From Shigella phage ESh25: a stretch of DNA of 64,000 bases. The notes under the pieces are model-generated. The model was not told where the DNA came from and did no database searches. It saw only the letters and a program-made list of their open reading frames with translations. Every line of letters starts with the position of its first letter. Positions within the stretch are counted from its first letter, which is position 1. The stretch is from the sequence record ON528735, one strand, 5' to 3'. The translations under genes were made by a program, and so were the position numbers. Shown here one piece after another: positions 2,527-60,866 of this stretch.

Positions 2527-4340
2527 TGGTGTTTAACCCTATGCATGATTTCTTTATTTTTGCCAAGATTAAATCCGCGCTCGTTCGGATTTCCCAAATA
2601 ACCACATGTTCTTCTTATTGTGTTCATCTTTTTAGGATCAGTTTCTCCACAAATAGAACAAACAAATCCGTTTTCAGTAGGAGTCATTTCATGGGTACTT
2701 CCGCATGTAAAACACTTATCTACTGGCATATTAACACCAAAATAATCTAAATGCTGTGCAGCATAATCCCACACGGCCTCAAGACCTTTTAAGTTATTTT
2801 TCATATCAGGAAGTTCAACATAAGAAATGTGACCACCTGTCGCAATGAAATGATATGGCGCTTCACGAGAAATCTTTTCAAACGGAGTAATATTTTCTTC
2901 TACTGAAACATGGAAACTGTTAGTGTACCAGCCTTTATCAGTAACATCTTTTACGCTTCCATATTTTTCTGTATCGAGTTTACAGAAGCGATAACAAAGG
3001 TTTTCAGCAGGAGTCGAATATAAACTAAAAGCAAACCCAGTTCTTTCAGTCCACTGTTTAAGACGAGCATTCATTTTAGTTAAAATTTCTTGTCCAATAT
3101 CACGACCGACAAGAATATTCAATTCATGAATACCAATGTATCCTAAAGACACTGAACTTCTACCGTTTTTAAATAACTCAATTATGTCGTCATCAGGTTT
3201 AAGACGAACCCCGAATGCACCTTCTTGGTAAAGAATAGGAGCAACAGTCGCTTTAACTCCTTTTAAGGAACTAATTCTACACATCAAAGCTTCAAAACAT
3301 AAATCCATTCGTTCATTGAACAATTCGATAAATTTCTGTTCATTGAACTGTGTTCCAATATAAGAATCTAATGCGATACGAGGAAGATTCAGTGTTACAA
3401 CACCGAGATTATTACGTCCATCAAGAATTTCATTGCCAGTCGAATCTTTCCATACGCTCAAGAAACTACGACAACCCATTGGAGAAACAGGAATAGATGA
3501 GCCAGTGATAGCTTTATTGTTCTTAGCTGAAATAATATCAGGATACATTCTTTTGCTTGCGCACTCTAAAGCAAGTTGCTTAATGTCGTAATTCGGATCG
3601 TCTTTATAAAGATTAACGCCTTCTTCAACGAACATAACAAGCTTAGGGAAAATAGGAGTTATCCCATCACGACCAAGACCTTTAATACGATTTTTCAGAA
3701 TTGCTTTCTGAATCATTCGTTCAGTCCAGTCAGTTCCCGTACCAAATGTAATTGTTACAAAAGGCGTTTGTCCGTTTGAACTAAAGAGAGTGTTTACTTC
3801 ATATTCATAAGCTTGGAATGCATCGTATACATCTTTTTCTGTTTTAGATTGAGCATAATTTAACGCATCAGCGATTTGCCATTTTTCTGCATCCTCAATA
3901 TGTTTTGCATAGGTGCGTTTAACATAAGGAGAAAGTACTTTATCTACATTCGCAAAAGTCGTTCCGCCGTATTGGTGAGAAGCAACCTGTGCAGTAATTT
4001 GTGCCATAATTGCAGTAGCAACGCCAATTGATTTAGGAGTTTCAATCTGTGCATTACCAAGCTTAAATCCGTTCTCAAGCATTCCTTTTAAATCTACTAA
4101 ACAACAATTAGTAAATGGAAGAGCAGGGGAATAATCAATATCATGGAAATGAATAATTCCGCTTTCATGCGCTTTCATAATAAAAGACGGGACCATATTT
4201 TTGGCAATGTGTTTAGACACAATACCAGCCATAAGGTCCCGTTGAGTTGGAAAAACACGAGAATCTTTATTAGCATTCTCGTTTAAAAGGTCTTTATTAG
4301 TTTTATGAATCAATCCTTCAATTTCTTTTTCAATTGTCAT
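2523..4340 (-). CDS. nrdD: anaerobic ribonucleoside-triphosphate reductase (glycyl radical enzyme), continuous ORF without intron
   Basis: 605 aa uninterrupted ORF; C-terminal glycyl-radical region and Zn-ribbon cysteines; recalled near-identity to T4 NrdD. Confidence 0.95.
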   Translation of the reverse strand: MTIEKEIEGLIHKTNKDLLNENANKDSRVFPTQRDLMAGIVSKHIAKNMVPSFIMKAHESGIIHFHDIDYSPALPFTNCCLVDLKGMLENGFKLGNAQIETPKSIGVATAIMAQITAQVASHQYGGTTFANVDKVLSPYVKRTYAKHIEDAEKWQIADALNYAQSKTEKDVYDAFQAYEYEVNTLFSSNGQTPFVTITFGTGTDWTERMIQKAILKNRIKGLGRDGITPIFPKLVMFVEEGVNLYKDDPNYDIKQLALECASKRMYPDIISAKNNKAITGSSIPVSPMGCRSFLSVWKDSTGNEILDGRNNLGVVTLNLPRIALDSYIGTQFNEQKFIELFNERMDLCFEALMCRISSLKGVKATVAPILYQEGAFGVRLKPDDDIIELFKNGRSSVSLGYIGIHELNILVGRDIGQEILTKMNARLKQWTERTGFAFSLYSTPAENLCYRFCKLDTEKYGSVKDVTDKGWYTNSFHVSVEENITPFEKISREAPYHFIATGGHISYVELPDMKNNLKGLEAVWDYAAQHLDYFGVNMPVDKCFTCGSTHEMTPTENGFVCSICGETDPKKMNTIRRTCGYLGNPNERGFNLGKNKEIMHRVKHQ

Positions 4341-4810
4341 TTTAAACTCTTTCTAAGCTGCTTCTTAAATGAAGCTATTAATTGTGTTTTAGTGTCAGAT
4401 TCATTATATTCAAATCCTCTTTGAAGCATCTCAGCCATCATTTCCTCTTTTCCTAAACGAGAAAATTCCTTTGATTTATCTCCAACAAAGTTAGGGTGAA
4501 TATTATTTTGGGTGTAATCGGATTTTAAATAAGTAAGTAAATTTTCTAACCATTCAAGATAATCAACACCTTGCCCCTTTAAGCCAGAACGATTAAATTT
4601 ATGTTTCATTTGACCTTCTGCGGCATTGCAGAGATTACAAAGCAATCCACGTACCTTTCCTGCTTTTGGTCCATTTAATTCATGGTCATGGTCGAGGTGA
4701 TTAGCTTGAACATCAGGATTTAGTTCTCGTTGGCAAATTAAGCATTTACCGTTTTGTGCATCATAAAATTTCTGTTTTTCTTCTTTGTATAATTTGCCAG
4801 TCAATAGCAT
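4337..4810 (-). CDS. 49: endonuclease VII (Holliday junction resolvase)
   Basis: 157 aa, Zn-binding CLIC...CNLC and HLDHDHE motifs; recalled identity to T4 gp49. Confidence 0.95.
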   Translation of the reverse strand: MLLTGKLYKEEKQKFYDAQNGKCLICQRELNPDVQANHLDHDHELNGPKAGKVRGLLCNLCNAAEGQMKHKFNRSGLKGQGVDYLEWLENLLTYLKSDYTQNNIHPNFVGDKSKEFSRLGKEEMMAEMLQRGFEYNESDTKTQLIASFKKQLRKSLK

Positions 4811-4851
4811 AATAAACCCTTACCTTAAATAGATAAGGGTATTTATTATTT

Positions 4852-52815: not shown

Positions 52816-55953
<3,138 letters not shown>

Positions 55954-55984: not shown

Positions 55985-57964
55985 ATGACTTTATTATCTC
56001 CGGGCATTGAGCTCAAAGAAACTACGGTTCAAAGCACCGTGGTTAATAACTCTACTGGTACAGCAGCTTTGGCCGGTAAATTCCAGTGGGGTCCTGCTTT
56101 TCAGATTAAACAGGTTACAAATGAAGTAGATTTAGTTAATACTTTTGGTCAACCAACCGCTGAAACTGCTGACTATTTTATGTCTGCGATGAATTTCTTA
56201 CAGTACGGAAATGACTTACGAGTAGTTCGTGCTGTTGATAGAGATACCGCTAAAAACTCATCTCCGATTGCTGGTAATATTGAATACACAATTTCTACCC
56301 CAGGTAGTAACTATGCAGTTGGAGATAAAATCACGGTCAAATATGTTTCAGATGATATTGAAACTGAAGGTAAAATTACTGAAGTAGACGCAGATGGAAA
56401 AATTAAGAAAATTAATATTCCTACTGCAAAAATTATCGCTAAAGCTAAAGAAGTCGGTGAATATCCGGAATTAGGTTCTAACTGGACTGCGGAAATTTCT
56501 TCGTCTTCCTCTGGTTTAGCTGCAGTAATAACTCTTGGAAAAATTATTACTGATTCTGGTATTTTATTAGCTGAAATTGAAAATGCTGAAGCTGCTATGA
56601 CAGCGGTTGACTTTCAAGCAAATCTCGAAAAATACGGAATTCCAGGAGTAGTAGCTCTTTATCCAGGCGAATTAGGCGATAAAATTGAAATTGAAATTGT
56701 ATCTAAAGCTGACTATGCAAAAGGAGCTTCTGCATTACTCCCAATTTATCCAGGTGGTGGTACTCGTGCATCTACTGCTAAAGCAGTGTTTGGATATGGA
56801 CCACAAACTGATTCACAGTACGCTATTATAGTTCGTCGTAATGATGCTATTGTTCAAAGTGTTGTTCTTTCAACTAAGCGTGGTGAAAAAGATATTTACG
56901 ATAGTAACATCTATATCGATGACTTTTTCGCAAAAGGTGGTTCAGAATATATTTTTGCAACTGCACAAAACTGGCCAGAAGGCTTCTCTGGAATTTTAAC
57001 TCTTTCTGGTGGATTATCATCAAATGCTGAAGTAACAGCAGGAGATTTGATGGAAGCTTGGGACTTCTTTGCTGACCGTGAATCTGTAGATGTTCAACTG
57101 TTTATTGCGGGTTCTTGTGCCGGTGAATCTTTAGAAACAGCATCTACTGTCCAAAAACACGTCGTTTCAATTGGGGATGCTCGTCAAGATTGCTTAGTAT
57201 TGTGCTCACCACCACGTGAAACTGTAGTTGGAATTCCTGTAACTCGCGCTGTTGATAACTTAGTCAATTGGAGAACCGCAACAGGTTCATACACTGATAA
57301 TAACTTTAATATCAGTTCAACCTACGCAGCAATTGATGGTAACTATAAGTATCAGTATGACAAATATAATGATGTGAATCGTTGGGTTCCATTAGCAGCT
57401 GATATTGCTGGTTTATGCGCAAGAACTGATAACGTTTCTCATACTTGGATGTCTCCAGCTGGTTATAATCGTGGCCAAATTTTGAACGTTATTAAACTGG
57501 CTATTGAAACTCGCCAAGCTCAGCGCGACCGTTTATACCAAGAAGCTATTAACCCGGTAACTGGCACAGGTGGCGATGGTTACGTATTGTATGGTGATAA
57601 AACAGCTACTTCTGTTCCTTCTCCGTTTGATCGTATTAACGTTCGTCGTCTGTTTAATATGTTGAAAACTAATATCGGACGTAGTTCAAAATATCGTTTG
57701 TTCGAATTAAACAACGCGTTTACTCGTTCATCATTCCGCACAGAAACTGCCCAGTACTTACAGGGAATTAAAGCTCTCGGTGGAATTTATGAATATCGTG
57801 TAGTTTGCGATACAACAAATAACACTCCGTCAGTAATTGATAGAAATGAGTTTGTTGCAACATTCTACATCCAACCGGCTCGTAGTATAAATTATATCCA
57901 ACTTAATTTCGTCGCAACTGCTACTGGTGCAGATTTTGATGAGTTAACTGGTCTTGCAGGTTAA
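55985..57964 (+). CDS. 18: gp18, tail sheath protein
   Basis: 659 aa; T4 gene order and size. Confidence 0.97.
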   Translation: MTLLSPGIELKETTVQSTVVNNSTGTAALAGKFQWGPAFQIKQVTNEVDLVNTFGQPTAETADYFMSAMNFLQYGNDLRVVRAVDRDTAKNSSPIAGNIEYTISTPGSNYAVGDKITVKYVSDDIETEGKITEVDADGKIKKINIPTAKIIAKAKEVGEYPELGSNWTAEISSSSSGLAAVITLGKIITDSGILLAEIENAEAAMTAVDFQANLEKYGIPGVVALYPGELGDKIEIEIVSKADYAKGASALLPIYPGGGTRASTAKAVFGYGPQTDSQYAIIVRRNDAIVQSVVLSTKRGEKDIYDSNIYIDDFFAKGGSEYIFATAQNWPEGFSGILTLSGGLSSNAEVTAGDLMEAWDFFADRESVDVQLFIAGSCAGESLETASTVQKHVVSIGDARQDCLVLCSPPRETVVGIPVTRAVDNLVNWRTATGSYTDNNFNISSTYAAIDGNYKYQYDKYNDVNRWVPLAADIAGLCARTDNVSHTWMSPAGYNRGQILNVIKLAIETRQAQRDRLYQEAINPVTGTGGDGYVLYGDKTATSVPSPFDRINVRRLFNMLKTNIGRSSKYRLFELNNAFTRSSFRTETAQYLQGIKALGGIYEYRVVCDTTNNTPSVIDRNEFVATFYIQPARSINYIQLNFVATATGADFDELTGLAG

Positions 57965-57970
57965 TTGATT

Positions 57971-58609
57971 ATGGGGCTTCGGCCCCTATTCTCGAGGAAA
58001 CAAGTGATTATTTCTAAGTTTGTTACAATAAAACCAAGAAATCATTCAAAAATGTGGTCGACAATTCTGGGATATAAAGTATCATATCATGATACAGTAT
58101 CTGTTCCAATAGAATTAATGCCAAAGAATAGTAATAAAATAGTTGACGCTAAATGTGATTTGTGTGGTACTAAATTTAGTAGAAGCATTCAACTTTTAAA
58201 TAGAACACCCACACATGCGTGTAGAAAATGTAGCATTAAACAAGTTGCTATTAAAAATTCGGAAGTTCAATCTGGAATAAGCAGACCATGGCAAAGAGGT
58301 GATAAACATCCTCGATGGACTGGCAAAAGAAAAGAGTTTGCATTATATGCTAGTAGAGTTCATTCTATAACTAAGTCAGCTAAAATAAGAAAAATCTGGT
58401 CAAAATGGCCAAATGCTGATAAAATAGGAGTGTGTGGCGTAGAAGGTGCTTACCAACTCGATCATAAAGTATCTATCAAATATGGATTTGATAATTTAAT
58501 TCCGCCGGAAATTATAGCAAGCGTAAAAAATTTAGAAATAATCACTTGGGAATCTAACCGAGAAAAGTCAAAAAGAAATAGCGTAGATCTTTGGGATTTA
58601 CTAGAATGA
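57971..58609 (+). CDS. putative HNH-family homing endonuclease inserted between genes 18 and 19 (start uncertain, alternative ATG 58052)
   Basis: C-x2-C...C-x2-C zinc-finger cysteines plus HNH-like QLDHKVSIKYGF...N...W.SN motif; basic protein. Confidence 0.55.
   Translation: MGLRPLFSRKQVIISKFVTIKPRNHSKMWSTILGYKVSYHDTVSVPIELMPKNSNKIVDAKCDLCGTKFSRSIQLLNRTPTHACRKCSIKQVAIKNSEVQSGISRPWQRGDKHPRWTGKRKEFALYASRVHSITKSAKIRKIWSKWPNADKIGVCGVEGAYQLDHKVSIKYGFDNLIPPEIIASVKNLEIITWESNREKSKRNSVDLWDLLE
57973..57986 (+). terminator. GC tetraloop hairpin after gene 18 (GGGGC-TTCG-GCCCC)
   Basis: Perfect 5-bp GC stem with TTCG loop; same element in mRNA sense at 26820-26807 on minus strand. Confidence 0.45.
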
Positions 58610-58616
58610 TTCTAAA

Positions 58617-58634
58617 GGCCTGTTTCGGCAGGCC
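58617..58634 (+). terminator. hairpin (GGCCTG-TTTCG-GCAGGCC) after the HNH ORF
   Basis: 6-bp GC stem directly followed by a late promoter. Confidence 0.4.
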
Positions 58635-58635
58635 A

Positions 58636-58643
58636 TATAAATA
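58636..58643 (+). promoter_or_regulatory. T4 late promoter (TATAAATA), distal, for gene 19
   Basis: Exact TATAAATA. Confidence 0.55.
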
Positions 58644-58694: not shown

Positions 58695-58702
58695 TATAAA
58701 TA
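58695..58702 (+). promoter_or_regulatory. T4 late promoter (TATAAATA), proximal, for gene 19
   Basis: Exact TATAAATA 14 nt upstream of the gene 19 ATG. Confidence 0.6.
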
Positions 58703-58716
58703 CTACAGAGGCTAAT

Positions 58717-59208
58717 ATGTTTGTAGATGATGTAACACGAGCGTTTGAATCTGGTGATTTTGCTCGACCTAACTTATTCCAAGTAGAAATTTCTTATCTT
58801 GGACAAAATTTTACGTTTCAATGTAAAGCCACTGCTTTACCAGCTGGTATTGTAGAAAAAATTCCAGTCGGTTTTATGAACCGTAAAATTAACGTAGCAG
58901 GTGATCGTACATTCGATGACTGGACTGTTACAGTAATGAACGATGAGGCACATGATGCTCGCCAGAAGTTCGTTGATTGGCAAAGCATTGCTGCGGGGCA
59001 AGGAAACGAAATTACTGGTGGAAAACCTGCAGAGTATAAAAAGAGCGCTATCGTTCGTCAATATGCTCGTGACGCTAAAACAGTAACAAAAGAAATTGAA
59101 ATTAAAGGTCTGTGGCCTACTAACGTGGGTGAACTTCAATTAGATTGGGATTCAAACAATGAAATCCAAACCTTTGAAGTAACTCTCGCTCTCGATTATT
59201 GGGAATAA
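58717..59208 (+). CDS. 19: gp19, tail tube protein
   Basis: 163 aa; T4 gene order and size. Confidence 0.97.
   Translation: MFVDDVTRAFESGDFARPNLFQVEISYLGQNFTFQCKATALPAGIVEKIPVGFMNRKINVAGDRTFDDWTVTVMNDEAHDARQKFVDWQSIAAGQGNEITGGKPAEYKKSAIVRQYARDAKTVTKEIEIKGLWPTNVGELQLDWDSNNEIQTFEVTLALDYWE

Positions 59209-59240: not shown

Positions 59241-60865
<1,625 letters not shown>

Positions 60866-60866
<1 letters not shown>

Follow-up and report, generated by a model that had tools for sequence, protein, structure and literature searches.

The T4 endonucleases SegG, SegF and SegE are each encoded beside a conserved gene and cut the neighbouring gene of a phage that does not carry them, with co-conversion of flanking markers, the target in the carrier being polymorphic. 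NUMOD3 is a DNA-binding motif of homing endonucleases, and HNH proteins of the HK97 gp74 type are encoded adjacent to the terminase and needed for packaging. The Mob proteins of T4, as is also generally known, nick their targets (PMC13096335). Here we describe a gene situated between the tail sheath gene 18 and the tail tube gene 19 in a stretch of 64,000 nucleotides (nt) from Shigella phage ESh25 (ON528735; the whole stretch analysed is called the window), which represents the late region of a T6-like Tequatrovirus with the order gp17, gp18, open reading frame (ORF), gp19, gp20. Judged from its sequence, this ORF is the gene ORF19.1 of phage T6, absent from T4. The insert is likely a freestanding homing endonuclease gene, orthologous to T6 ORF19.1 and placed directly after the tail sheath gene; the proposal of a preliminary description of this DNA, that such an enzyme has invaded the late region, is supported by hallmarks at the sequence level, namely absence from many close relatives with base-precise boundaries, two divergent alleles at one site, a zinc ribbon combined with a D-H-N-N module, and relatives of this module that have other fusion partners or another address. 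The gene is optional and almost certainly mobile, and of a kind that is ordinary for T-even phages.

The spacer between genes 18 and 19 measures 116 nt in T4 and 752 nt in the window, bearing out the statement in the preliminary description that T4 has only a short one. When T4 and five further loci with an empty site are aligned to the window, the difference amounts to exactly 8 nt (TACGGTGC) in T4 versus 644 nt in the window (57965–58608), starting directly after the gp18 stop codon. T4-type records rejoin the window at 58609, and from there to gene 19 the window is 100% identical to T4; the hairpin and the two late promoters on this side are therefore part of the T4 backbone. Of the two GC hairpins that had been said to bracket the ORF, both are present but only the upstream one, with a UUCG loop (57973–57986), is part of the insert, the other (58617–58634) being native to T4; likewise, the two TATAAATA late promoters reported ahead of gene 19 do exist (at 58636 and 58695) but as native elements of the T4 backbone, not of the insert. 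The features of the locus are as follows, with residue numbers (C51, D153 and the like) referring to the 201-amino-acid (aa) protein starting from GTG 58004.

55985–57964, + strand: gene 18 (gp18, tail sheath); its stop codon TAA (57962–57964) forms the left boundary of the insert.
57965–58608, + strand: insert of 644 nt, in place of the 8 nt of T4.
57973–57986, + strand: hairpin with a UUCG loop (GGGGCUUCGGCCCC / GGGGCTTCGGCCCC) in the leader of the insert, inside the insert.
57994–58000, + strand: Shine–Dalgarno sequence GAGGAAA, upstream of the GTG start.
58004–58609, + strand: predicted coding sequence of the ORF19.1 type, GTG start, 201 aa, stop codon TGA (58607–58609).
58025–58391, + strand: central segment swapped between alleles, comprising the N-terminal domain, the zinc ribbon and the HPRW linker, delimited by DNA alignment of the T6-type and RB3-type alleles.
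58154–58231, + strand: CxxC-x18-CxxC zinc ribbon or treble clef with the conserved cysteines C51, C54, C73 and C76.
58433–58567, + strand: HNH-like (His-Me finger) module, C144-G145...Y-Q-L-D153-H154...N176-L177...W182...N185-R-x-K188.
58617–58634, + strand: native hairpin following gene 18 (GGCCTGTTTCGGCAGGCC), present in T4 and outside the insert.
58636–58643, + strand: first of the two native late promoters, exact match to TATAAATA.
58695–58702, + strand: second native late promoter, gene 19-proximal, exact match to TATAAATA.
58717–59208, + strand: gene 19 (tail tube).

In the phage collection, approximately 500 Tequatrovirus-type records match the gene 18–19 junction. The junction is uninterrupted and of the T4 type in 382 of these records, whereas 69 carry the allele of the window (T6-type) at a protein identity of at least 95%, and 48 carry a second, RB3-type allele that is 49% identical to the T6-type. 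This comparison among T4-like genomes, which had been suggested as a check, reveals that the gene is missing from about 76% of the close relatives: the site is empty in T4, T2, RB14 and RB32, and occupied in T6, PST, PP01 and others, with RB3 carrying the second allele. The sporadic presence among close relatives, combined with base-precise boundaries between two conserved genes, is the pattern characteristic of a freestanding homing endonuclease gene. A foreign base composition of the insert was considered as a further sign and gave no signal (33.5% G+C versus 35.6% in the window). Three records that are 98–99% identical to Tequatrovirus at the gene 18–19 locus bear host labels that look doubtful, namely PV654520.1 (Pseudomonas phage vB_PSGBLB0006), OR584013.1 (Pseudomonas phage PsgM02F) and MG010123.1 (Staphylococcus phage SAJK-IND).

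The mechanically delimited ORF runs from TTG 57965 to TGA 58609 (214 codons). That the gap holds a real gene, as first described, is evident from the match of residues 14–213 of this ORF to positions 1–209 of the 228-position profile PHROG 5104 ('unknown function') at E = 4e-82, but its length of 214 codons has to be revised. Because of the GAGGAAA sequence upstream, the note of a GTG start by the depositors of T6, and the 32 homologues that align from M/V-I-I-S-K, the true start is almost certainly GTG 58004, giving a predicted product of 201 aa. This product is 99.5% identical (aa) to T6 ORF19.1 (CAA84443.1), on record since 1994, and its full-length match places it in the T6 ORF19.1 orthologue group and PHROG 5104. 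The element is therefore already on record, as an uncharacterised gene: most GenBank records name it 'hypothetical protein', a few call it 'homing endonuclease' or 'HNH endonuclease', and the searchable literature yielded no functional description of ORF19.1 and no paper on the gene under ORF19.1, the gene 18/19 junction or a sheath/tube endonuclease.

Both sequence motifs that had been pointed out in the protein are conserved. The C-x2-C pairs are real and found family-wide, with C51, C54 and C73 being invariant and C76 occurring in at least 90% of the family members; the HPRW motif is also conserved in the family alignment. In the HNH-like motif, an alignment of 32 sequences shows no variation at D153, H154, N176, N185 or K188, and across 144 sequences these residues are conserved to at least 90%. 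The spacing of this C-terminal module is that of an HNH (His-Me finger) active site, with an acidic residue followed by the His that acts as general base, then an Asn of structural role and an Asn for metal binding, at the correct distances. An exhaustive search retrieved 1053 representative clusters at E ≤ 1e-3, many of which match only the C-terminal ~100 aa. Among 144 representatives, 14 match Pfam HNH_4 and six match HNH over this module, all below the threshold, 19 match the DUF4379 treble-clef zinc finger, six carry NUMOD3, and several carry a helix-turn-helix (HTH) motif; the DUF4379 matches, in 12 of the 32 and 19 of the 144 members, are also below threshold (best 5e-8). The relatives of the module are thus fused to NUMOD3, HTH or treble-clef domains, some having DUF7487 N-termini, and the architecture of homing endonuclease genes is one in which nuclease and DNA-binding parts are separate modules, shuffled among relatives. 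In ten relatives chosen solely for reading DH-I-x-P, the HNH_4 or HNH model falls exactly on the D-H...N...N module in all ten, at 13–19 bits compared with Pfam gathering cut-offs of 21–22. From the motif conservation and these consistent sub-threshold matches, rather than from a fold, we infer that the C-terminal module is an HNH nuclease module.

A mobile nature of the gene is further indicated by its allelic forms. In RB3-type carriers, gp18 is 99% identical to that of the window, whereas the protein encoded by this gene is only 49% identical. At the DNA level, the T6-type and RB3-type alleles are 93% identical over 57965–58024, ~45% over 58025–58391 and ~90% over 58392–58609; the exchange therefore affected the N-terminal domain, the zinc ribbon and the linker but spared the leader and the HNH module, and two alleles that differ by this central swap compete for one site. 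A second such pair is formed by loci L022 and L040, with 98% identity in the sheath and 41% in this gene. The gp18 ORF of L040 (1984–3819) has 1836 nt and that of L022 has 1983 nt, with an internal length difference of 147 nt, and the last 250 sheath residues of the two are 98% identical. Conversely, the gene of Acinetobacter phage AbTZA1 and those of L043–45 are 62% identical, more than their sheath proteins (48%). Presence and absence also recur in other genera, the gene being carried by Salmonella phage S16 and lacking in L013 (sheath 99% identical), and carried by L016 and lacking in L015 and L017. Compared with its relative L013, L012 has ~500 extra nt between gp19 and gp20 (~3990–4629), perhaps a further optional insertion within this late block.

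The position after the sheath gene is kept far beyond Tequatrovirus. Homologues in S16, AbTZA1 and Sinorhizobium phage phiM7 lie directly after the sheath gene. When 80 loci from a pattern scan of IMG/VR were pooled with the earlier loci, the gp18–gp19 gap was found to hold 44 of the 49 with a match extending into the N-terminal 50 residues (same strand in 42, opposite strand in one, gp18 off the contig in one) and 13 of the 38 loci matching the C-terminal module alone, counts that carry some ascertainment bias, as the query alignment was drawn from the sheath-site subfamily. The host contigs are very diverse, their sheath genes reaching best tblastn identities to reference sheath proteins of ~35% and upward. 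Despite this bias, the subfamily and the sheath/tube address are associated over deep divergence. In L053 (3231–3695) and L098 (4001–4159), the homologue beside the sheath 3′ end is on the strand opposite to the sheath and tube genes, being placed in L053 between the two. A sister lineage resides at a different junction: in L081, a homologue with an HTH-like N-terminus lies between Metallophos (gp47-like) and SMC/Rad50-hook (gp46-like) genes, and L068 looks alike in its ORF layout. The module of this lineage is located near gp47-like/gp46-like genes in four uncultured T4-like contigs (L065, 3587–4165; L068, 3821–4429; L081, 3812–4423; L094, 3207–3791); in L094, the homologue is separated from the gp47-like ORF by two further ORFs. 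In L065 and L094, the downstream gp46-like ORF begins with MLDA(L/M)SF..LFGK and lacks the N-terminal P-loop segment, and therefore the insertion may split gp46.

A further peculiarity is found in the sheath gene itself. The C-terminal gp18 peptide 'IDRNEFV..IY.KPARSIN(Y/F)I.LNF' is nearly invariant across the T4 superfamily, and the DNA encoding part of it differs between the window and T4-like genomes in a short patch, the changes being nearly all synonymous. Mismatches were counted per 36-nt segment along gp18, with positions given from the stop codon.

57878–57913, + strand: recoded patch at the 3′ end of gene 18, codons ~R633–N641, peptide ARSINYIQLN; contains TATAAATT (57886–57893).
Window versus L010 (T4-like), carrier versus empty: 14 of 36 at −87 to −51 (57878–57913), mean 2.1, densest in gp18.
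S16 (L004) versus L013, carrier versus empty: 16 at −103 to −67, mean 0.9, densest in gp18.
L016 versus L015 or L017, carrier versus empty: 13–14 at −88 to −52, mean 4.5, top 3%.
L015 versus L017, both empty: 2 at −88 to −52, mean 1.6, unremarkable.

A dense patch recurs in these three independent contrasts of carriers with non-carriers. On either side of it, the window and L010 hardly differ, over ~125 nt upstream and over 108 nt downstream. The codons read (AGT or TCG) ATA AAT TAT AT in carriers and AGC AT(T/C) AAC TAC AT(T/C) in empty-site genomes, and all T6-type carriers among those listed have the patch of the window. There is about an even chance that the T6-type enzyme has its target or its conversion tract in this patch, the best candidate at hand.

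With regard to expression, the layout of a hairpin, a Shine–Dalgarno sequence and GTG-IISK is common to the window, RB3 and S16, and in L022 and L028 the start codon is likewise GTG, preceded by a GC-rich inverted repeat. The Acinetobacter phage homologues have their own TATAAATA and an ATG start, and many distant homologues overlap the gp18 stop codon (TAATG, TGATG). These arrangements imply that expression would in all cases be late and linked to gp18. In the Acinetobacter phages L005 and L038, the 60 nt preceding the ATG of the homologue contain an inverted repeat (GGCTCTCTATAAATA...TATAGAGAGCC) with the TATAAATA core in its 5′ arm, a leader unlike the UUCG hairpin and GTG leader of Tequatrovirus and S16. 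The idea that the upstream hairpin of the window hides the ribosome-binding site was rejected, its fold being no better than that of shuffled sequences (z = −0.7); the native downstream hairpin at 58617–58634 gave z = −3.1. The sequence TATAAATT at 57886–57893, within gene 18 and ~118 nt upstream of the ORF start, is a 7/8 match to the late-promoter core, but it arises from the carrier-type synonymous codons and reaches 7/8 only in Tequatrovirus, the equivalent carrier patches of S16, L016 and L022 reading CGATAAATT. It was set aside as the ORF's own late promoter on account of these other genera; a promoter role is doubtful and a minor possibility.

Several observations weigh against the reading of the insert as a homing endonuclease gene. 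As for the protein, Pfam and NCBIfam gave no above-threshold match and no HNH match at E ≤ 1 with the protein of the window. Sequence and profile searches of PDB chains found no relative of solved structure, the hits (alignments A2, A5 and A6) being generic zinc fingers only, with nothing on the C-terminal module. Single-sequence structure models were unusable, with predicted local distance difference test (pLDDT) values of 30 for the whole protein and 45 for the C-terminal 67 aa. Furthermore, an hhalign comparison with the HK97 gp74 family is in register (DH/DH, NLQ/NWQ) but weak (E = 0.03–0.04, probability 1–2%). This in-register match, together with the placement of the gene in the late block gp17-gp18-ORF-gp19-gp20, could suggest a packaging-associated HNH protein of the gp74 kind that assists the terminase encoded two genes upstream. 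The outer genes of this block are:

54121–55953: gene 17 (gp17, terminase).
59280–60866: gene 20 (gp20).

A packaging role is, however, extremely improbable, since T4, T2 and about three-quarters of the close relatives package normally without the gene, in disagreement with a conserved partner of the terminase; the gene always goes with the sheath gene's 3′ end and not with the terminase; the protein lacks the gp74-type CxxC...CxxC around the HNH core; the gp74-family similarity has the low probability given above; and, as is generally known, the T4 terminase gp17 possesses its own nuclease.

The remaining points concern the patch and the inheritance of the gene. A carrier-like patch is present in the empty-site genomes L008, L014 and L011, and in roughly 136 of the 382 empty-site records the patch is not that of T4; one of these is RB14, in which the stretch as a whole differs from T4. 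Three RB3-type carriers, detected with a chimeric query, have a fully T4-like patch, which refutes the rule that a T4-like patch never co-occurs with the gene; in one of them, Ec_YwIITB1, the gene is intact. In addition, carriers of other sublineages (L038, L040 and L042) show an empty-like patch. An intact RB3-type gene beside a T4-like gp18 patch would be harmless if the enzyme were inactive, and one may thus regard the gene as a decayed or inactive remnant, conserved by recency and no longer an active nuclease, for which no experimental activity is on record and no family model scores above the threshold. We consider this very unlikely, because the catalytic-type and zinc-ligand residues are all kept over more than 1000 representative clusters, down to ~30% identity, and 232 of the 240 tblastn matches are full length in one piece.

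Finally, gene and sheath identities are weakly but positively correlated (Spearman 0.36), and therefore the distribution is partly vertical. This correlation is what one would see with a vertically inherited accessory gene of the tail or late module that was lost many times and does not actively home, the product being a zinc-ribbon nucleic-acid-binding protein or nuclease that, for example, excludes or degrades competitor or host DNA. Such inheritance would also agree with the nearly complete intactness of the copies, with the post-sheath position kept from Tequatrovirus to phiM7 and many uncultured T4-like contigs, and with the overlap of many distant members with the gp18 stop codon (TAATG, TGATG), suggestive of operon-like integration. 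It is nevertheless unlikely to be the explanation, as the alleles differ by half of their residues in phages with nearly identical gp18, some pairs are more similar in this gene than in the sheath, and the sister lineage is found at a different core-gene junction. Moreover, the empty site is identical and base-precise in the 382 records, pointing to recombinational gain or replacement and not to repeated clean deletion.

Returning to the freestanding homing endonuclease gene as the preferred reading, we may outline how the element would operate. Having no exact late promoter of its own, the gene would be read late from gene 18 transcripts that start at TATAAATA 55949 and continue past the UUCG hairpin, and the weak GTG start would keep the protein level low. 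In a mixed infection, the part comprising the zinc ribbon and the N-terminal domain would bind the gene 18–19 region of a co-infecting phage without the gene, which would then be nicked or cut by the single HNH site, most likely in or near the ultra-conserved gp18 codons 633–641 or across the empty junction. Recombination-dependent repair of the T4 type would copy the cassette and adjacent DNA from the carrier into the cut genome, and the carrier itself would be protected by the recoded gp18 patch, the disrupted junction, or both. A broader and more tentative proposal, to which we give somewhat less than an even chance, is that the family forms a distinct HNH subfamily that has no Pfam or NCBIfam model above the cut-off and keeps its address at the sheath 3′ end by targeting the DNA for the near-invariant gp18 peptide 'KPARSINYI.LNF', with carriers escaping by synonymous recoding and alleles with swapped modules competing. 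This subfamily would range over Tequatrovirus, Gelderlandvirus, Acinetobacter and Sinorhizobium phages, and many uncultured lineages.

Freestanding homing endonucleases shape the recombination boundaries and the marker exclusion between co-infecting T-even phages, and T6-type phages serve in studies of defence and anti-defence and in phage therapy. After three decades on record, the gene is now available as a precise cassette with natural examples of empty (T4, T2) and carrier (T6, RB3) sites, a natural third type consisting of empty-site phages with a gp18 patch unlike that of T4, and a candidate target of 36 nt within a gene that is essential and ultra-conserved. The family merits a curated model, as the Pfam and NCBIfam scans gave no match above the cut-off, and mosaicism driven by endonucleases should be taken into account when the gp18 3′ end is compared among genomes. 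The kind of element is otherwise well known in T-even phages; of interest are mainly the faithfulness of the subfamily to its site over deep divergence and the clear target hypothesis.

The locus is worth comparing with the known systems. T6 ORF19.1 likewise lies between genes 18 and 19 and, according to the depositors' note, also starts with GTG; nothing material differs. The T4 MobA–E and I-HmuI-type HNH enzymes resemble ORF19.1 in having a single HNH module and, in the case of Mob, in being encoded by freestanding optional genes between conserved T-even genes. Their domain order is reversed, however: the HNH module of ORF19.1 is C-terminal, behind the zinc ribbon, and the protein of the window has no NUMOD match, in contrast to the Mob-like arrangement of an N-terminal HNH followed by NUMOD/IENR-type repeats. 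Elsewhere in the window, a 281-aa ORF (1689–2532, − strand) has an HNH-like motif, HHVLPKS...NIVNL...HALAH, near residue 51 and sub-threshold C-terminal matches to I-HmuI NUMOD-like and NUMOD1, that is, a Mob layout, and looks like a second putative homing endonuclease gene, of the freestanding Mob type. Another His-Me finger enzyme in the window is endonuclease VII, encoded by gene 49 (4339–4819, − strand; Pfam Endonuclease_7, E = 5e-22; dimerisation domain, E = 2e-33), an ordinary T-even gene. Pfam HNH_4 (PF13395) and HNH (PF01844) share D-H-x2-[SP]-x3-G...N-L...N-x2-K with the module of ORF19.1, which, except for C144, lacks the cysteines flanking the classical HNH core. The HK97 gp74-type proteins share the His-Me finger motif, but their zinc ligands differ and the similarity is weak. 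From general knowledge, the recoded patch resembles the target-site immunity or the co-conversion scar of freestanding endonucleases such as SegG or MobE. By analogy, the lifestyle proposed for ORF19.1 would be the same as that of T4 SegG, SegF and SegE, from which it differs in the catalytic family, GIY-YIG in the Seg enzymes versus HNH in ORF19.1, and in that the target described here is a candidate one.

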